A program made the translations under genes and the position numbers. Under the pieces are notes generated by a model. The model was given only the letters and a program-made list of their open reading frames with translations. It was not told the origin of the DNA and ran no database searches. A stretch of DNA of 64,000 nt from Escherichia coli (GTDB lineage Bacteria; Pseudomonadota; Gammaproteobacteria; Enterobacterales; Enterobacteriaceae): NCBI RefSeq assembly GCF_044647545.1, contig NZ_CP172818.1; one strand, written 5' to 3'. This document shows positions 23,891 through 64,000 of the stretch, one piece after another; within the stretch, counting starts at the first letter, position 1; the number at the start of each line of letters is the position of its first letter.

Positions 23891-25483
23891 CTATAACCCA
23901 GGCGCTTTCCATAACGACGTCGTCAGTCCATGATCAACCAGCCCCAGCTGATCCTGATAAACTGCCTGCCACTTATCGCGTGAATCCTGATAAAGTTCAT
24001 GCTTTTCTGGGTCTGGTGTGTGCGTCCGTTCCCAGCGAACCAGGCGTTCTCCGGTTTCTGCCATTGATGAAAAAATTCCGGCACCGACGCCAGCTGCAAT
24101 GGCACATCCTAATGCAGTGGCTTCTTTGACCACCGGAATATTGACGGGTAATCCCGAGACATCAGCGAGAATTTGACTCCATAATTTCCCTTTTGAACCT
24201 CCGCCTGCAAAGACTAGAGATGTGGGATGAATATTCGAAAAATCAGCAATTTGCTGCAAGTTACACGCTGATACAATCGCCGCATTTTCTTCCAGCGCAC
24301 GGAACAATGTCGCTTTGTTACATTTATCCGGGTCAATGGACAAGTTAATAAAGGAAGGCGCAGCGTGATACCAGGTTTTAAAGCGCATTCTGTCGGAGAA
24401 TATCGGCATTACGCCCCACGACCCAGGCGGCACACGACTTGCCATCTCTTCAAGCAGCGTATAGGTGTCGATGCCTAAACGTTCGGCAATCAGTTTTTCT
24501 TCGGCACAGAAAGCATCGCGGAACCAGCGCATGGTGAGTCCGGTAAAAAAGCTTATAGATTCAGCTTGTACCATGCCAGGAATAACATGGGGATTAACGC
24601 GCACGTTCATTTCTGGGTCTGTCACCGGCGCGGCTAAGTTTACAACTTGCTGCCAGAATGTACCGCCAAGAACCGCGGTTTGTGCCGGACGGACAACGCC
24701 TAACCCCAGGCAACCAAGCTGCACGTCACCTCCTCCAACGACCACCGGAGTGCCCGCCTTCAGACCGCAGAGTTCCGCCGCTTGTGAACTTACCACGCCC
24801 AGCAATGTGCCGGTTTCTTTGACAGGAGAAAGAATATCGGCCCGCAGTCCGGCCATATCCAGCAATGCAGGTTTCCAGTCACGGGTGGTTAGATCAAGAA
24901 GTCCCGTGGTGCCAGCGTTAGAGGGATCCACCGCCAGTTCGCCGCTGAGCATATAGGCCAGCCAGTCGCTGATCATGGTGATGGTCGACGCCTGTCGGTA
25001 GATATCGGAACGATGGTGCGCCAGCCAAAGTAATCTGGGGATGGCGCTTAAAGCCAGCGTTTGCCCGGTCGCTCGATAAACTTTGTTTTCAAAGGTATTG
25101 TTGTGCAGTTCTTTAAGTTCGCTAACTTCGCGCGCCGCTCTGGCATCCACATTGGCGCAGGCCCAGATCGGTGTTCCATCATTGTTATATAAAACAATGC
25201 CTTCACGCATCGAACATGCCGAAACGGCAGCGATATACTCCGGGGCTATGCCGGCGTTGTGCAGCGCCTGGCGCATACACTCACACGCCAGTTGCCAGTT
25301 TTTGTTGAGATCAAATTCCATAGAACCAGGAACGTCCGGTACTGCCAGGTGCCGCCACTCCGCCTGTCTCACGGCTATTTGATTGCCTTCCAGGTCGAAT
25401 ATCACAGCCCGAATACTTCCGGTACCTGCATCCAGCGCCATCAGGTAATACTTTGATTCTGAAGGGGTAAAGAGTCGAGCCAT
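23891..25483 (-). CDS. lsrK: autoinducer-2 kinase LsrK, 530 aa
   Basis: FGGY-family carbohydrate kinase-like 530-aa ORF adjacent to and co-oriented with lsrR, divergent from lsrACDBFG. Confidence 0.9.
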
Positions 25484-45172: not shown

Positions 45173-45556
45173 ATGTCCAGACGCAATACTGACGCTATTA
45201 CCATTCATAGCATTTTGGACTGGATCGAGGACAACCTGGAATCGCCACTGTCACTGGAGAAAGTGTCAGAGCGTTCGGGTTACTCCAAATGGCACCTGCA
45301 ACGGATGTTTAAAAAAGAAACCGGTCATTCATTAGGCCAATACATCCGCAGCCGTAAGATGACGGAAATCGCGCAAAAGCTGAAGGAAAGTAACGAGCCG
45401 ATACTCTATCTGGCAGAACGATATGGCTTCGAGTCGCAACAAACTCTGACCCGAACCTTCAAAAATTACTTTGATGTTCCGCCGCATAAATACCGGATGA
45501 CCAATATGCAGGGCGAATCGCGCTTTTTACATCCATTAAATCATTACAACAGCTAG
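45173..45556 (+). CDS. marA: AraC/XylS-family activator MarA, 127 aa
   Basis: Trimmed to [46 protein letters not shown]... (127 aa); ORF track alternative start at 45167. Confidence 0.9.
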
Positions 45557-45587
45557 TTGAAAACGTGACAACGTCACTGAGGCAATC

Positions 45588-45806
45588 ATGAAACCACTTT
45601 TATCCGCAATAGCAGCTGCGCTTATTCTCTTTTCCGCGCAGGGCGTTGCGGAACAAACCACGCAGCAGTTTGTTACTTCCTGTGCCAATGTCGTGGTTGT
45701 TCCCCCATCGCAGGAACAACCACCGTTTGATTTAAATCACATGGGTACTGGCAGTGATAAGTCGGATGCGCTCGGCGTGCCCTATTATAATCAACACGCT
45801 ATGTAG
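45588..45806 (+). CDS. marB: periplasmic protein MarB, 72 aa
   Basis: 72-aa ORF with signal peptide, third gene of mar operon. Confidence 0.85.
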   Translation: MKPLLSAIAAALILFSAQGVAEQTTQQFVTSCANVVVVPPSQEQPPFDLNHMGTGSDKSDALGVPYYNQHAM

Positions 45807-57412: not shown

Positions 57413-58198
57413 AATTCACAGGTGTTTTTTCCCATCCTGTGGTTTCCTTGGCGTTTTCTAGGTTTTTTCAGATAGTTGCATTTTTTAAAAAGCATCCTAA
57501 GTTCGATCTCAGTGTCTATCTGGGGCCTATTTCTGTCCCATATATGCCCCAAAAAAAACTCCCCAACAGATAAGTAGTTTTTTCATGGATTTATGCGTAA
57601 AATCAAGAACGGCTGGAAATCATTCAATACTCACACTATCGAAAAATTTACCAGCCAACCGCAGCACGTTCTTGCATAAGGCGTGTCTGCGGTTTTTCAA
57701 CTATTCAGATACATCACTCCCATCACATTCATTCCTCCGCATCAAAGGCATATAGGCTATATCACCTTGATATTTTTCTTTTTCAGATAAAAACTGTTAT
57801 CTATGTATACTTTTAAACCCAATCCGTGTAGAGTCTCTGCATAAGATAGTTTACAGTTGCCGCTTCAGCTTGCGCCATAAACCGCCTGATTTTTGCTGCC
57901 ACCTGTTAGCATTCCTGTATACCTGAAACGACAATGTTTATCTACGAACTTTAAGAACACCCAAGATAAAAATTGTCAACTATATCATATATAACACATT
58001 ACTAATTCGAGGCTATATGAACAGCATACTGATAATCACATCTCTCCTTATCATATTCAGCATTTTTAGTCATGCCCTAATAAAATTAGGGATTGGCATA
58101 TCCAATAACCCAGACAAAACCGATGTATAAGTCAACATATCCTGAATCAGACATACAATATCGCAATGAAAATCAATAATATTTTAAGGAATATCTTC

Positions 58199-58432
58199 AT
58201 GAAATCAAAAGACACCCTAAAGTGGTTCCCTGCGCAGCTTCCTGAAGTAAGAATTATCCTAGGGGATGCTGTAGTGGAAGTAGCAAAACAGGGAAGACCT
58301 ATCAATACCAGAACATTGCTTGATTACATTGAAGGAAACATAAAGAAAAAATCATGGCTGGATAACAAAGAATTATTACAAACAGCGATATCAGTTCTTA
58401 AAGACAACCAAAATTTAAATGGTAAAATGTAA
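58199..58432 (+). CDS. ydfK: Qin prophage protein YdfK, 77 aa
   Basis: Trimmed to MKSKDTLKWFPAQLPEVRIILGDAVVEVAKQGRPINTRTLLDYIEGNIKKK... start. Confidence 0.75.
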   Translation: MKSKDTLKWFPAQLPEVRIILGDAVVEVAKQGRPINTRTLLDYIEGNIKKKSWLDNKELLQTAISVLKDNQNLNGKM

Positions 58433-58748
58433 TATAATAAACTTACTTTTTTATCATTTTTCCACTTTAACAACATTTTGCTCCACTTTTCCACGACCAA
58501 ACAACTTGAAATCTGGTTAAAATAACACGCAACACTATTCTTCTTCCTTGAGTCCGCCCGGAACTCGAAAAACAAACCGAGTTAAAGCCTTTTTTCACAA
58601 AATCGATTTTGGGTCTCACCAAAATTACGGGGTTGCATACGCATTCGTTTATTTTCGAACGTGTACATACAAATATGCACAAAAATAATCATAATTATTT
58701 TCTGAGATGCATTATGATATGAACACCAATTTCGTATAGAGTCTCACT

Positions 58749-59339
58749 ATGTCTCGAATTTTTGCTTACTGTCGGATATCAACGCTGGATCAGACCACCG
58801 AAAATCAACGCCGGGAAATCGAAAGTGCAGGTTTTAAAATCAAACCTCAGCAAATAATCGAAGAACACATTAGCGGCTCAGCAGCAACCAGTGAGCGTCC
58901 TGGTTTTAACCGGTTGCTTGCTCGCCTGAAATGTGGTGATCAATTGATTGTGACAAAACTGGATCGCCTTGGTTGTAATGCAATGGATATCAGGAAAACA
59001 GTGGAACAACTGACCGAAACAGGTATCAGAGTGCATTGCTTAGCATTGGGTGGCATTGACCTGACCAGTCCAACAGGAAAAATGATGATGCAAGTAATTT
59101 CAGCAGTCGCTGAATTTGAACGAGACCTTTTACTTGAACGCACTCATTCCGGGATAGTAAGAGCCCGCGGCGCAGGGAAACGTTTTGGTCGACCACCTGT
59201 GTTAAATGAAGAACAGAAACAGGTGGTATTCGAACGAATTAAGTCAGGTGTAAGTATAAGTGCCATTGCCCGGGAATTCAAAACCTCGCGGCAAACCATT
59301 TTAAGAGCCAAAGCAAAACTTCAGACACCTGACATATAA
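58749..59339 (+). CDS. pinQ: serine DNA invertase PinQ (Hin/Gin/Pin family), 196 aa
   Basis: Resolvase/invertase N-terminal catalytic domain (YCRISTLDQ with catalytic Ser) and C-terminal HTH. Confidence 0.9.
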
Positions 59340-59436
59340 AAAATAATCTCGGTGTGAGATGCTTTACGTCTTCCAAGCCCCCTTCCTTGCCGTAAATGGA
59401 AAGATACATCTAATTATAGAATTTATATGTTTTACC

Positions 59437-60011
59437 CTACGGCAGTGCTGGCCATTCAATATCCTGTGCAGTTGACGTATCAACACGGTTCAGCAATACC
59501 CGATACTTTTTCCATGCTTCCAGCAACGGGGTTTCTTCCTCCGTTGCAATTTCCAGATCTGCAGCATCCTGAAGCGGCGCAATATGCTCACTGGCTACCT
59601 GCATCAGGTTGTTTTTTTTTCTTCCGCTTCCCGTATCCGAAACAGTTTTTCTGCTTCCTCATCATTCACCCAGGATACGCCGTCCCACTTCTGATACTCC
59701 CCTGCTGGCGACAACCAGGTGACATTCTCTGGTAGCGGTCCGAGTTCAGAAATAAACAATGCGTCCCCCGACGCCACGTCATAGACCGTTTTACCACGAT
59801 GGTCTTCAACAATATTCCACGATTCATTTTCACTGTTAAAAACTGCCACAAAGCCAGCAGGAATTTCCGGTGGGGCGATATCTGTAGAATTAGCTGGCAG
59901 CCCTGTATGAGGTGGAATATATGCGTCACCTTCACCAATAAACTCATTAGTTCCGGCCAGCAGGTTATAAATTTTTACGGTACGTGATTGTTCACTCATT
60001 CTGAATGCCAT
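59437..60011 (-). pseudogene. tfaQ: tail-fibre assembly protein TfaQ, disrupted by a -1 frameshift in an A9 homopolymer
   Basis: ORF 59604-60011 (135 aa) ends ...EEKKTT stop inside a run of nine A (coding strand; T-run at 59612-59620). Shifting frame by one A continues as [58 protein letters not shown] to a stop at 59437-59439, giving the expected 191-aa protein. Confidence 0.8.
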
Positions 60012-60934
60012 TATGCAAGCCTCACAATATAATTAAATGCGATGTTTTTAACGGTGTTTTCCGCGTTACCAGCAGCGTTAACGGTGATGGTGTGTCCATG
60101 TGAACCAATCTTAACAGAGTGCGTATGAGCGCCAATACCAACAGTGTGTGCATGTGCCCCAGCACTTGTAGCGGTACCTGATACTGAGTGGGTATGTGCG
60201 CCAGAAGAAGGCACAGTTCCATTCCCCACCACCGTGCCACTTGATGAACCATCCAGCCAGTCGAAATTCATACCGCCACTGTTTGGTCTCCTTAATGGAA
60301 CGGTATGAGTATGTGCGCCAGCACTATTTGCAGTACCAGATACATTGTGGGTATGTGCACCTGTGTTATTCGTTGATTTAGTACCGTAATCAAACGACGA
60401 TGTGGTTTTCGTACCCAAATCCGTACTGGATGCGCTGGCACTGTGGGTGTGCGATTTAATGCCATCCTGTTCCTGAGACAATACGGCCCGACCACTGGCG
60501 GGTTTGCCCTTGATTGTCCAGCCGCGCATATCTGGAATAACACCAGAAGGATAGGCAATAGCCAGTTTCGGATATGCTGCCTTATCAAACGTCTGCCCCT
60601 GCATGATTGCATAACCTGCAGGTGGCGTATCTGATGGCCACGGGATTGGTGCACCGACTGGATAAAACTCTGCAGGAGGATGAGCCGAGGTGTAAAGCTG
60701 CGCCCACGGCGACCAGTTTGCGTCGGTCGTATCCCGTCGTGAACGAATAAATGCCGGAGCATGAGCACCGCTTGTACCACTCCAGCCGATGAGTAACTCA
60801 CCTTCGCCAACGGCTGTCATCCCTTTCAGGTGAATGATATTTCCATACGCTGTTGGATATCCGTTGTTATACACCTCGTATAACTCAAGACCTGCTGCCC
60901 CCTGCGTATTGTCTGTCAGCGCGGTTATATTCAC
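60011..60934 (-). CDS. stfQ: side tail fibre protein remnant StfQ (YdfN), 307 aa
   Basis: Repeated GAHTH(S/T)V motifs typical of phage side-tail-fibre C-terminal regions; stop overlaps tfaQ start by 1 nt. Confidence 0.75.
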
Positions 60935-61454
60935 TCAGCAACCCCGGTATCAGTTCATCCAGCGCGGCTGCTTTGTTCATGGCTTTGATAATATCCCGTT
61001 TCAGGAAATCAACATGTCGGTTTTCCAGTTCCGGAAAACGCCGCTGCACCGACAGGGGGAGCCCGTCGAGAATACTGGCAATTTCACCTGCGATCCGCGA
61101 CAACACGAAAGTACAGAATGCGGTTTCCACCACTTCAGCGGAGTCTCTGGCATTCTTCAGTTCCTGTGCGTCGGCCTGCGCACGCGTAAGTCGATGGCGT
61201 TCGTACTCAATAGTTCCTGGCTGGAGATCTGCCTCGCTGGCCTGCCGCAGTTCTTCAACCTCCCGGCGCAGCTTTTCGTTCTCAATTTCAGCATCCCTTT
61301 CGGCATACCATTTTATGACGGCGGCAGAGTCATAAAGCACCTCATTACCCTTGCCACCGCCTCGCAGAACGGGCATTCCCTGTTCCTGCCAGTTCTGAAT
61401 GGTACGGATACTCGCACCGAAAATGTCAGCCAGCTGCTTTTTGTTGACTTCCAT
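60885..61454 (-). CDS. nohQ: phage terminase small subunit (Nu1-like) remnant NohQ, 189 aa
   Basis: N-terminus [29 protein letters not shown] is a Nu1-type HTH; 3-prime end overlaps stfQ by 50 nt in a different frame, consistent with a deletion-fusion junction. Confidence 0.7.
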
Positions 61455-61841
61455 TGTTCATTCCACGGACAAAAACAGAGAAAGGAAACGACAGAGGCCA
61501 AAAAGCTCGCTTTCAGCACCTGTCGTTTCCTTTCTTTCAGAGGGTATTTTAAATAAAAACATTAAGTTATGACGAAGAAGAACGGAAACGCCTTAAACCG
61601 GAAATTTTTCATAAATAGCGAAAACCCGCGAGGTCGCCGCCCCGTAACCTGTCGGATCGCCGGAAAGGACCCGCAAAATGATAATAATTATCATCTGCAT
61701 GTCACAACGTGCATCTACGCCATCAAACCACGTCAAATAATCAATTATGACGCAGGTATCATATTAATTGATCTGCATCAACTTAACGTAAAAACAACTT
61801 CAGACAATACAAATCAGCGACACTAAATACGGGACAACCTC

Positions 61842-62075
61842 ATGTCAACGAAGAACAGAACCCGCAGAACAACAATCCGCAACATCCGCTTTCCTAACCA
61901 AATGATTGAACAAATTAACATCGCTCTTGATCAAAAAGGGTCCGGGAATTTCTCAGCCTGGGTCATTGAAGCCTGCCGCCGGAGACTGTGCTCAGAAAAA
62001 AGAGTTTCTCCTGAAGCAAACAAAGAAAAGAGTGACATTACTGAATTGCTCAGAAAACAGATCAGACCAGATTGA
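61842..62075 (+). CDS. ynfO: Qin prophage protein YnfO, 77 aa
   Basis: 77-aa basic ORF (ribbon-helix-helix-like N-terminus); synteny. Confidence 0.65.
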   Translation: MSTKNRTRRTTIRNIRFPNQMIEQINIALDQKGSGNFSAWVIEACRRRLCSEKRVSPEANKEKSDITELLRKQIRPD

Positions 62076-62116
62076 AGCAATTTAGATAATCGTGCAGACT
62101 ACGCCCCTCATATCAC

Positions 62117-62542
62117 ATGGAAGGTACCACAATGGCTCAGGTTGCCATTTTTAAACAAATATTCGATAAAGTGCGAAATAATTTAAACTATCACTGGTTT
62201 TATTCTGAACTAAAACGTCACAATGTCTCACATTACATTTACTATTTAGCTACAGAGAATATTCATCTTGTTCTTGAAAACGATAATACGGTTTTAATAA
62301 AAGGACAGGGTAAGGTTGTAAATGTAAGATTTTCAAAAAATAAATGCCTTATAGAAGCCACCTTAAAAGGATTCAAATCAGGAGAGTTATCATTTTACGA
62401 ATACAGGAAAAATCTTGCTACAGCAGGGGTTTTCAGATGGATTACAAATATCCACGAAAACAAAAGGTATTACTATACCTTTGATAATTCATTACTCTTT
62501 ACTGAGAACATTCAGAACACTACACAAATATTTCCGCACTAA
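62117..62542 (+). CDS. ydfO: Qin prophage protein YdfO (DUF1398), start uncertain (62117 or 62132)
   Basis: 141-aa ORF; alternative start [11 protein letters not shown]; synteny. Confidence 0.65.
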
Positions 62543-62731
62543 ATCATAACGTCCGGTTTCTCTCACTCCTGAGCCGGACTGCATTGGTTTAATAAAAACC
62601 ATCGACAATCGAGATTTATATCTATTCGGTAATGTTTAAATATAACAAAACCCCGTAAAAACGAGGTTTATGGGTAATTTGTATTGTTGAATAGCATCTG
62701 ATGAGAAATTGATGCTAATACTATAAACATG

Positions 62732-62905
62732 CTAGATTAAATCAATCTTGATATCATAGCTTTCAAGACCAGTCATTTTTTCCCGTGCAGTAAACTGGAT
62801 ACTGGTAACTTCTTTCCCGGTCTTTTTCTTAAGCTCAATGATTTTTTTTGTTATATATTCAGAAATATCTGCTTCTGTTTTTGTTTTTAACTCTTCAATG
62901 TTCAT
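62732..62905 (-). CDS. gnsB: GnsB, 57 aa (overexpression suppressor of secG/fabA mutations)
   Basis: Trimmed to MNIEELKTKTEADISEYITKKIIELKKKTGKEVTSIQFTAREKMTGLESYDIKIDLI. Confidence 0.8.
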   Translation of the reverse strand: MNIEELKTKTEADISEYITKKIIELKKKTGKEVTSIQFTAREKMTGLESYDIKIDLI

Positions 62906-63077
62906 CATTTCCTCTTTTAGTCTGTTATGACTGTCCTGGTACACAGTAGTGTCAATTATATGGAGCAAACGTATAAAAGATAAGATGAAACATCGCAATA
63001 ATCAACATACGACGGTCTAAATTTCACACAAACAGATAAAGATGATTATCATTTATTATCAATGCATTAGAATCAAA

Positions 63078-63347
63078 TCAATTCAAGAGTCTCATTGCTG
63101 CTTCCAGAATTTCTTCTGAAGTTACATGTCGATCCGCTGCTACATAAATGACTTTATGATCTCCGGTCAGAGATGGAAACCCTGCAGCCATTACAGTGAG
63201 GTGTGTTGTTTCGCCATTTGGATATTCACGCATGATGGTGTTAACTCCGGTCATCACTGGCACTACCATTGCTGGTTCAGAGTTAAAAAAAACTATTATT
63301 TTTTTCATAATGTTACCGTAATATGTGAGTATCCATCGACTAGACAC
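63078..63347 (-). CDS. ynfN: Qin prophage small protein YnfN; true start probably internal (about 51 aa, MREYPNGETTHL...)
   Basis: ORF track 89 aa; located immediately downstream of cspI as in K-12; start not resolvable from sequence alone. Confidence 0.55.
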   Translation of the reverse strand: MSSRWILTYYGNIMKKIIVFFNSEPAMVVPVMTGVNTIMREYPNGETTHLTVMAAGFPSLTGDHKVIYVAADRHVTSEEILEAAMRLLN

Positions 63348-63579
63348 TAAGCAAAAAAGCTCCCGAAGGAGCCTTCATTTTCACTTTCTTAAATCTAACG
63401 ACAGATGGCTAACATTTAAGTATTGTGAAATATTATCAAATGTAATCATCATTGATTTACAAAAGATACATTTTGCCCCGAAAGGATTTCTGTCAGAAAC
63501 ATCAAAAGATGATGTTCTATACTGAGAACCATGGCAACACGGGCATCTAAAGTGAATATGGTTTGTAATATTTTCTACC

Positions 63580-63792
63580 TCAAAGTGCCACTACATGAAC
63601 AGCTGCAGGGCCTTTAGGTCCGTTCTCAATACCAAATTCGACTTCCTGATTCTCAGTTAACGTTTTGAAATCGTTGCTCTGAATAGCTGAGAAATGCACA
63701 AACACATCTTTGCTACCATCTTTCGGCGTGATGAAACCAAAACCTTTTTCAGGGTTAAACCATTTCACTAAACCAGTCATTTTGTTAGACAT
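63580..63792 (-). CDS. cspI: cold-shock protein CspI, 70 aa
   Basis: [38 protein letters not shown]... with RNP1 motif KGFGFI and RNP2-like VFVHF; long AT-rich 5-prime leader upstream (63793-64000) as typical for csp genes. Confidence 0.9.
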
Positions 63793-64000
63793 CATTATTA
63801 CCTTTTGAAGAAGTTAGCCCTTGGGCAGAATGGTCCGAAAAAAAAATATCAGAGAGAAAAACCAACAAGGAAATCTCAAGAGGTACAAATAATAAAATTA
63901 TAACAATGACTGCTTCAGATAATTTTGTAACAAACCAGAACACCATTAACGCATGATTAACCAACCATAGCAAGGATTACTTTTGTAAAGAAAAACACAC

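Follow-up and report, generated by a model that had tools for sequence, protein, structure and literature searches.

Two overlapping reading frames in a prophage remnant

We analysed a window of 64,000 nt from the Escherichia coli contig NZ_CP172818.1 (assembly GCF_044647545.1), in which two minus-strand open reading frames run into each other in different frames, one at 60885..61454 (189 aa, ATG start) and one at 60011..60934 (307 aa, GTG start). A sequence-only reading had named them nohQ and stfQ and reported a 50-nt overlap at 60885-60934; as a statement on open reading frames, this is confirmed by both the ORF list and the sequence. The names are borrowed from K-12, because the window is not K-12. 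RefSeq/PGAP annotates no overlap on K-12-type genomes, where a tail-protein pseudogene of 702 nt is placed 211 nt from nohA.

The 189-aa frame (60885..61454, minus strand) encodes a terminase small subunit of the nohQ/nohA type (Nu1; Pfam PF07471). Its residues 1-164 cover the whole Phage_Nu1 profile (1-164/164, E=2.8e-100), and before the junction described below it shares 173/176 identities with Nu1 of the intact phage PhiR42_1. At the DNA level, the nohQ region is 97-99.7% identical to the Nu1 regions of lambda-like phages. Upstream of Nu1 we found an exact match to cosN (GGGCGGCGACCT; 61631..61642, minus strand) with flanks nearly identical to the PhiR42_1 cos. Since cosN and the adjoining cos sequence are intact, the remnant should, judging by its sequence, still be cleavable and packageable by the terminase of a helper phage.

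In Pfam, the 307-aa frame matches the phage tail Collar domain (E=2.1e-11) as well as Phage_fiber repeats. DNA and protein alignments show that 60011..60925 (minus strand) is the 3' 31% of a side-tail-fibre gene, corresponding to codons 710-1025 of an intact-phage stf. Homology to intact stf begins at 60927: the DNA is 100% identical to PhiR42_1 45353-45653 over 301 nt, and the protein matches Stf residues 709-1025 with 263/321 identities. Only Stf 710-1025 is present, and the N-terminal tail-attachment domain and central shaft (about 700 aa) are absent. The C-terminal collar/fibre-repeat region is retained together with tfa directly downstream, which it meets in an ATGA-type overlap at 60011. 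Beyond PhiR42_1 45653 the stf tail of the window is a different mosaic allele. The window frame is also 13 codons shorter than that of K-12 (307 vs 320 aa), and one stretch of its GAHTH-type fibre-repeat region, 60204-60312, does not align to K-12 stfQ.

The tail fibre assembly gene tfa (59437..60011, minus strand) is split into 135-aa and 55-aa frames, as seen from the ORF list and from alignment to PhiR42_1 tfa. The split stems from a single 1-nt deletion in the A-run GAAGAAA-AAAAAAC (window 59600-59610); tfa is intact, at 191 aa, in K-12 and PhiR42_1. Convergent to the tail-fibre frames lies a gene for a pinQ-type serine recombinase (58749..59339, plus strand; 196 aa; Pfam Resolvase and HTH_7). 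The closest solved relative of this recombinase is Gin (E=2.7e-29), a distant one, at a distance similar to that of gamma-delta resolvase. We found no pix-type site in cis to pin in the intact phage PhiR42_1; K-12 PinQ inverts the P segment of e14, acting in trans (PMC12529663).

These genes belong to the right arm and late-region remnant of a defective prophage of the Qin type, which occupies 57419..64000 and continues past the end of the window. The gene order ynfT-ydfK-pinQ-tfaQ-stfQ-nohQ-ynfO-ydfO-gnsB-ynfN-cspI and the insertion in ydfJ identify it as Qin of the K-12 type. The proposed deletion had been called consistent with a cryptic, non-inducible prophage; what the sequence shows is that all virion structural genes are lost and that tfa is frameshifted. 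The host backbone at 30000-54000 is 99.9% identical to ST648-type strains, in which ydfJ is uninterrupted and no prophage is present at this place, and the match to the uninterrupted ydfJ (ST648, 99.97%) ends at 57418, inside ydfJ, 77 nt before its start. K-12 genomes aligned to window 59500-61700 with only about 93% identity over 95% of the length. Local alignment to K-12 gave 96% on the pin/tfa side and 92% on the noh/ynfO side, and across the Qin region as a whole identity to K-12 was 92-97%. The closest Qin allele that we found was that of strain BS-01 (97.6%); over the full prophage stretch, none of the complete E. coli genomes in the collection exceeded this value.

The overlap is the scar of a deletion of about 21 kb

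Overlap of a tail-fibre frame with a terminase frame had been taken to mark an internal deletion of head and tail genes, on the grounds that the two modules normally lie far apart, and comparison with intact lambdoid phages had been proposed as a check. We searched a phage collection with each flank separately and recovered intact lambdoid phages that carry both flanks in the same orientation about 21 kb apart, with all head and tail genes between them. The best intact relative was PhiR42_1 (PV340562.1), a complete Qin-type phage with which the right arm of the prophage is colinear up to the end of the phage record. The first part of its gene order reads int, xis, recE, dicC-type immunity, relBE, Q, S, R, rzpQ, cspI, ynfN, gnsB, ydfO, ynfO and cos, and the second Nu1, A, W, B, C/Nu3, D, E, FI, FII, Z, U, V, G, T, H, M, L, K, I, J, lom, stf (1025 aa), tfa, a pinQ-type recombinase and ynaE. 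The Nu1 side of the window aligns up to PhiR42_1 24216 and the stf side from 45353, with a TA common to both alignments. What is missing relative to PhiR42_1 amounts to 21,138 bp, from codon 4 of the terminase gene A to codon 709 of stf. In PhiR29_1/2, PhiR26_1 and PhiR68_2 the flanks are 20.9-21.1 kb apart; the size is thus an estimate from relatives (PhiR42_1 and four further intact phages), not from a direct ancestor. Because intact relatives hold these flanks about 21 kb apart, the overlap does mark a deletion of the morphogenetic region, as had been proposed, and because they hold them in the same orientation, a simple deletion accounts for it.

The two parental sequences meet at a single junction, 60926-60927, on the right-hand edge of the overlap. 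Here the window reads GTGAATA-TA-ACCGCGCTG, where A reads GTGAATA-TA-TCGAAC and stf reads GGTCGGG-TA-ACCGCG, so that the TA dinucleotide at 60926..60927, as seen by sequence comparison, is a 2-nt microhomology present in both parents. We found no direct or inverted repeat at the junction. Alignment to the K-12 Qin runs unbroken across it, and strains that hold extra A sequence break exactly at 60926/60927. We are thus highly confident that a single illegitimate (non-homologous) deletion of about 21.1 kb in a Qin-type lambdoid prophage in ydfJ left the overlap as its scar, joining nucleotide 9 of A to stf codon 710 at the shared TA, and none of our observations speaks against a deletion. The event removed A except for 9 nt, 19 further head and tail genes (W to lom) and the first 709 codons (69%) of stf. 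Two or more nested deletions could have produced the same end state instead of one, and strains with intermediate structures do exist (L031 and L008, see below).

The break fused the terminase start codon to stf and extended Nu1

In PhiR42_1 the Nu1 stop lies at 24233 and the GTG start of A at 24208, giving a natural overlap of 26 nt. In lambda, too, the GTG start of A lies within the 3' end of Nu1, 26 nt ahead of the Nu1 stop. The corresponding codons in the window, GTG AAT ATA at 60926..60934 (minus strand), are the first three of the terminase large subunit gene A, homologous to the PhiR42_1 A GTG at 24208. Since the break fell inside this natural Nu1/A overlap, it both fused the A start to stf (307 aa) and extended Nu1 (189 aa).

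The fusion is in frame. Where A reads GTG AAT ATA TCG and stf reads GGT CGG GTA ACC GCG CTG, the window reads GTG AAT ATA / ACC GCG CTG, and at the protein level the A N-terminus VNISNS and the Stf stretch GRVTALTDN are replaced by VNITALTDN. Comparison of the three sequences shows that the GTG with which the ORF list opens stfQ is terminase A's own start codon, and that stfQ, a predicted ORF, is an in-frame A'-'stf chimera. In the other frame, Nu1 reads 13 stf codons to a TGA because its own stop, 17 nt past the breakpoint, was deleted. These novel codons lie in stf-derived DNA at 60885..60925 (minus strand), as shown by alignment of nohQ to Nu1. nohQ consequently consists of 176 of the 181 Nu1 residues followed by 13 new ones, which replace the native last five residues IEQSG. 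Both frames had been described as remnants, a word that hardly suits nohQ, which is nearly full length.

The 50 nt of overlap are accounted for by 7 nt of Nu1/A sequence (60928-60934), the 2 ambiguous nt of the TA (60926-60927) and 41 nt of stf (60885-60925). Its length is deterministic rather than a matter of chance, and the overlap itself is a by-product of where the break fell.

We also considered whether the two frames are a selected overlapping gene pair whose products, an altered Nu1 and a shortened fibre protein, would serve the host. The A start is fused in frame, this type of junction is kept both in K-12 and in a diverged allele with 92-97% identity to it, and in e14 a Stf that is truncated or chimeric plays a part in defence against phages (PMC12529663). 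An in-frame fusion has, however, a one in three chance of arising, most other junctions at the same stf site (see below) are out of frame or end at TAA, and the adjoining tfa is frameshifted in the window. We therefore consider selection for the pair very unlikely.

Comparison with known elements

Qin is known as a defective lambdoid prophage with cos, a Nu1 homologue and stf/tfa homology to lambda (PMC3945230). The window shares with the Qin (Kim) prophage of K-12 the insertion in ydfJ, the gene order, the junction sequence GTGAATATAACCGCGCTG and the 50-nt overlap (stfQ ORF 320 aa and nohA 189 aa in K-12), but differs from it in its 92-97% identical allele, its stf ORF of 307 rather than 320 aa and its frameshifted tfa. 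The same A'-'stf junction sequence is found in L001 (K-12), L009 and the window. Both junction flanks, which include cos, Nu1, the stf tail, tfa, the pinQ-type recombinase and ynaE, are 93-100% identical at the DNA level to their counterparts in PhiR42_1, whereas the complete 21,138-bp segment from A to stf is present in the phage and missing from the window.

Like the lambda Nu1/A pair, the window has GTG AAT ATA (60926-60934) inside the 3' end of Nu1; in contrast to it, the A frame continues into stf and the overlap measures 50 rather than 26 nt, because the Nu1 stop was deleted. DLP12, with its order nohD - truncated A - truncated tfa, is likewise a K-12 lambdoid remnant that keeps cos and Nu1 and has lost its morphogenetic genes, and its nu1 is functional in lambda (PMC3945230). 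Its breakpoints are different, in a comparison drawn from that report alone (PMC3945230).

Because the window junction is the K-12 junction in a diverged allele, the deletion was already known. The overlap alone restates the loss of virion genes in Qin-type prophages, and it cautions that the stfQ start codon belongs to a terminase gene. In the literature we found no description of the junction or of an stf hot spot. What goes beyond the known is the reading of stfQ as a predicted in-frame A'-'stf chimera on a terminase start codon, and the apparent recurrence of the stf breakpoint.

The stf breakpoint is shared by deletions with different left partners

To reduce ascertainment bias, we scanned viral and metagenome collections in a position-unbiased manner with an anchor 24-mer 240 nt downstream of the site, and mapped the end of colinearity with PhiR42_1 stf in 87 loci. 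Further genomes came from a 300-nt query centred on the stf site. In these scans, breaks mapped to about 27 distinct positions along a span of 2,367 nt, and 7 of these positions lay within a single 3-nt window (P about 4e-12 if endpoints are uniform). This break position is PhiR42_1 45353-45355, or 60926-60927 in the window, with the site sequence CGGGTAACCG. The final catalogue holds 53 native copies and at least 14 distinct non-native left partners, all with the retained flank starting from PhiR42_1 45355 (ACC or GCC).

Among the left partners, terminase A is joined at four positions: nt 9 in K-12, the window, BS-01 and two metagenome contigs; nt 170; nt 245, as at the Qin site of strain S3 (L008); and nt 1240, as in a prophage adjoining bioA in EC21Z-048 (L003). 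Head-gene partners are the portal gene B and a ClpP-type prohead protease of a different head module. Partners from the tail region comprise U, I, J, the end of lom, a tape-measure gene from another phage and one further tail-region sequence; at the Qin site of NCCP12480 (L031), U nt 219 is joined to stf after a separate deletion from A to Z. The remaining partners are an internal stf site (44724) and, in a Rac-type prophage (L032), the left flank, which consists of sequence about 0.6 kb past a ynaK fragment. In one further locus (L226), the same stf point serves as a left end that is fixed.

Immediately ahead of the retained flank stands TA in 12 of the 14 partners, TG in one and CA in one. 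The native dinucleotide of the partner, where known, is TA, TG, TT or CA, each with at least one base in common with TA. Native alleles at the site read ACC in 35 cases and GCC in 20, and the GCC allele is used in 3 of the 14 partner types. The events lie on at least three right-flank haplotypes, at at least three chromosomal sites and among several head-gene types. Because haplotypes, chromosomal sites and left partners differ, no single ancestral junction can account for all events, and common descent of all junctions is ruled out. About 470 of the 1,276 genomes with this stf module hold only truncated copies, many of them being K-12 laboratory derivatives. Taken from sequence comparison, these observations indicate that deletions in different prophage lineages strongly recur at this stf breakpoint.

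As no causal feature was found at the site, there is a small residual chance that an ascertainment or selection effect, still unrecognised, lies behind the clustering. We also considered it unlikely that the junction shared by K-12 and the window is a one-off random microhomology-mediated deletion whose match with other junctions is without mechanistic meaning. Its microhomology of just 2 nt (TA) is typical of illegitimate recombination, and nearby junctions (L002, L007, L058, L081 and L048) resemble ordinary events with 2-7 nt of microhomology. Against this stands the finding that 14 left partners end at the same stf dinucleotide across prophage types, chromosomal sites and stf alleles, with the probability given above.

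Candidate causes of the recurrent breakpoint

Because at least 14 deletions with different upstream partners use the same 2-3 nt, a site-preferential break or joining reaction probably acted here. A more general proposition, which we regard as evenly balanced, is that the stf dinucleotide is a site-specific break or joining hot spot that repeatedly triggers loss of the late region in Qin/lambda-type prophages. Decay to a cos-Nu1...'stf-tfa-pin remnant would then be driven by a defined site and an enzyme (topoisomerase, nuclease or recombinase) and not by random erosion. If inactivation does repeatedly start at one defined site, the domestication of lambdoid prophages has a mechanistic, testable component, and the stf site could serve as a natural model for illegitimate recombination in E. 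coli. Among specific mechanisms, our preference goes first to a site-preferential break with end joining, then to template switching onto a preferred acceptor, and only after these to recombinase or defence-nuclease models.

In the first of these mechanisms, which we favour tentatively, DNA would break preferentially at CGGGT/AACCG in stf and be rejoined by end joining with 0-2 nt of microhomology. In all 14 events the right flank is unchanged from 45355 onward, the preceding bases are TA, TG or CA, each with at least one base as in TA, L226 has the same point as its fixed left end, and the break lies at the centre of a 10-bp near-palindrome, CGGGT/AACCG. One candidate for making the break is DNA gyrase. 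We compared the site with the published Topo-Seq consensus for gyrase, a 130-bp motif (PMC6379681 supplement). In the register 45351-45354, whose bottom-strand cut coincides exactly with the beginning of the retained flank, the central 36 bp rank in the top 0.28% of phage positions, by a count of matches to the published consensus and not by a weight matrix. However, the full 130 bp rank only in the top 6%, about 270 other phage positions score as well, seven registers were tried, and the junctions L003 and L018 do not fit simple subunit exchange. The gyrase match is therefore weak, and we treat it as a possible lead, not as a result.

Deletion series with one invariant and one variable end are known from Int-promoted b deletions of lambda, which are anchored at att, and from IS-adjacent deletions. 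The stf hot spot resembles them in having one invariant and one variable end; unlike them, it has no att, IS end or recombinase site that we could find at the fixed end. As an analogue of the Int-promoted, att-anchored deletions, the adjacent PinQ-type serine recombinase might have joined the stf site to upstream pseudo-sites. Exchange within a 2-nt core is what is expected of a serine recombinase, the pin gene lies 1.6 kb downstream in most carriers, and PinQ is active in K-12 (PMC12529663). Yet PinQ acts on Din-type pix repeats (CCTTCTCCCAAACCAA), and we found none of these in PhiR42_1 or close to the junction. The stf site is weak in dyad symmetry and exists in one copy only, the left core is other than TA in several cases, and some carriers lack pin. 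An inverted pair of 26-bp crossover sites (AAACC-NN-GGTTT core) was likewise not found in the stf-tfa-pin region of PhiR42_1 or near the junction. With neither a Din-type core, pix repeat, inverted repeats nor a second copy of the site, and with PinQ using classical pix sites, we rejected Pin-mediated deletion as highly unlikely.

Self-targeting by a type I-E CRISPR system appears extremely unlikely. Cas3, starting from a nick in the R-loop and degrading leftward, would leave a fixed right end and variable left ends. An AAG PAM lies at 45344-46, 7-8 nt left of the break, which would place the break at protospacer positions 7-8, and the deletions are one-directional. But a matching spacer between I-E repeats was present in 0 of 5,426 complete E. 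coli genomes, where the best matches were stf copies themselves (53% coverage), K-12 has the deletion but no such spacer, and the AAG could be there by chance.

Several further candidates were rejected. Chi-directed end protection lacks a Chi within kilobases of the stf site, and a hairpin or cruciform finds no support in DNA folding, which was no better than for shuffled sequence (z of -0.2 and -0.5). A BstEII-type site (GGTNACC) and a cosN-like sequence (AGGTCG...GTAACC) both exist only in the ACC allele, yet deletions use the GCC allele as well; in spacing and nick positions, moreover, the cosN-like sequence does not match cosN. A secondary att site was dismissed since the ends of the PhiR42_1 record have no similarity to the stf site, and a mosaic module boundary since native stf alleles continue across the site, whereas mosaic joints are situated at other positions such as 45574.

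Other junctions and less eroded Qin alleles

Junctions away from the stf hot spot (A1184/45320, A245/45206, A246/45396, A25765/45416 and J/44584) have the look of ordinary 2-7 nt microhomology events. Several further GG-N-TA sites are reused by independent deletions with different partners, namely PhiR42_1 24451-24452 (A nt 245), 25765 in A, 44724 in stf and a site in the I gene (ACAACGGATA). A245 joins stf at 45206, 45354 and 45396, A25765 joins stf at 45416 and 44718, and the I site joins both the hot spot and J.

Less eroded Qin alleles were found in NCCP12480 (L031), DLI.5a (L002) and S3 (L008), which retain 245-1185 nt of terminase A, or Z-U fragments. Together they form a series of decay stages of the same prophage.
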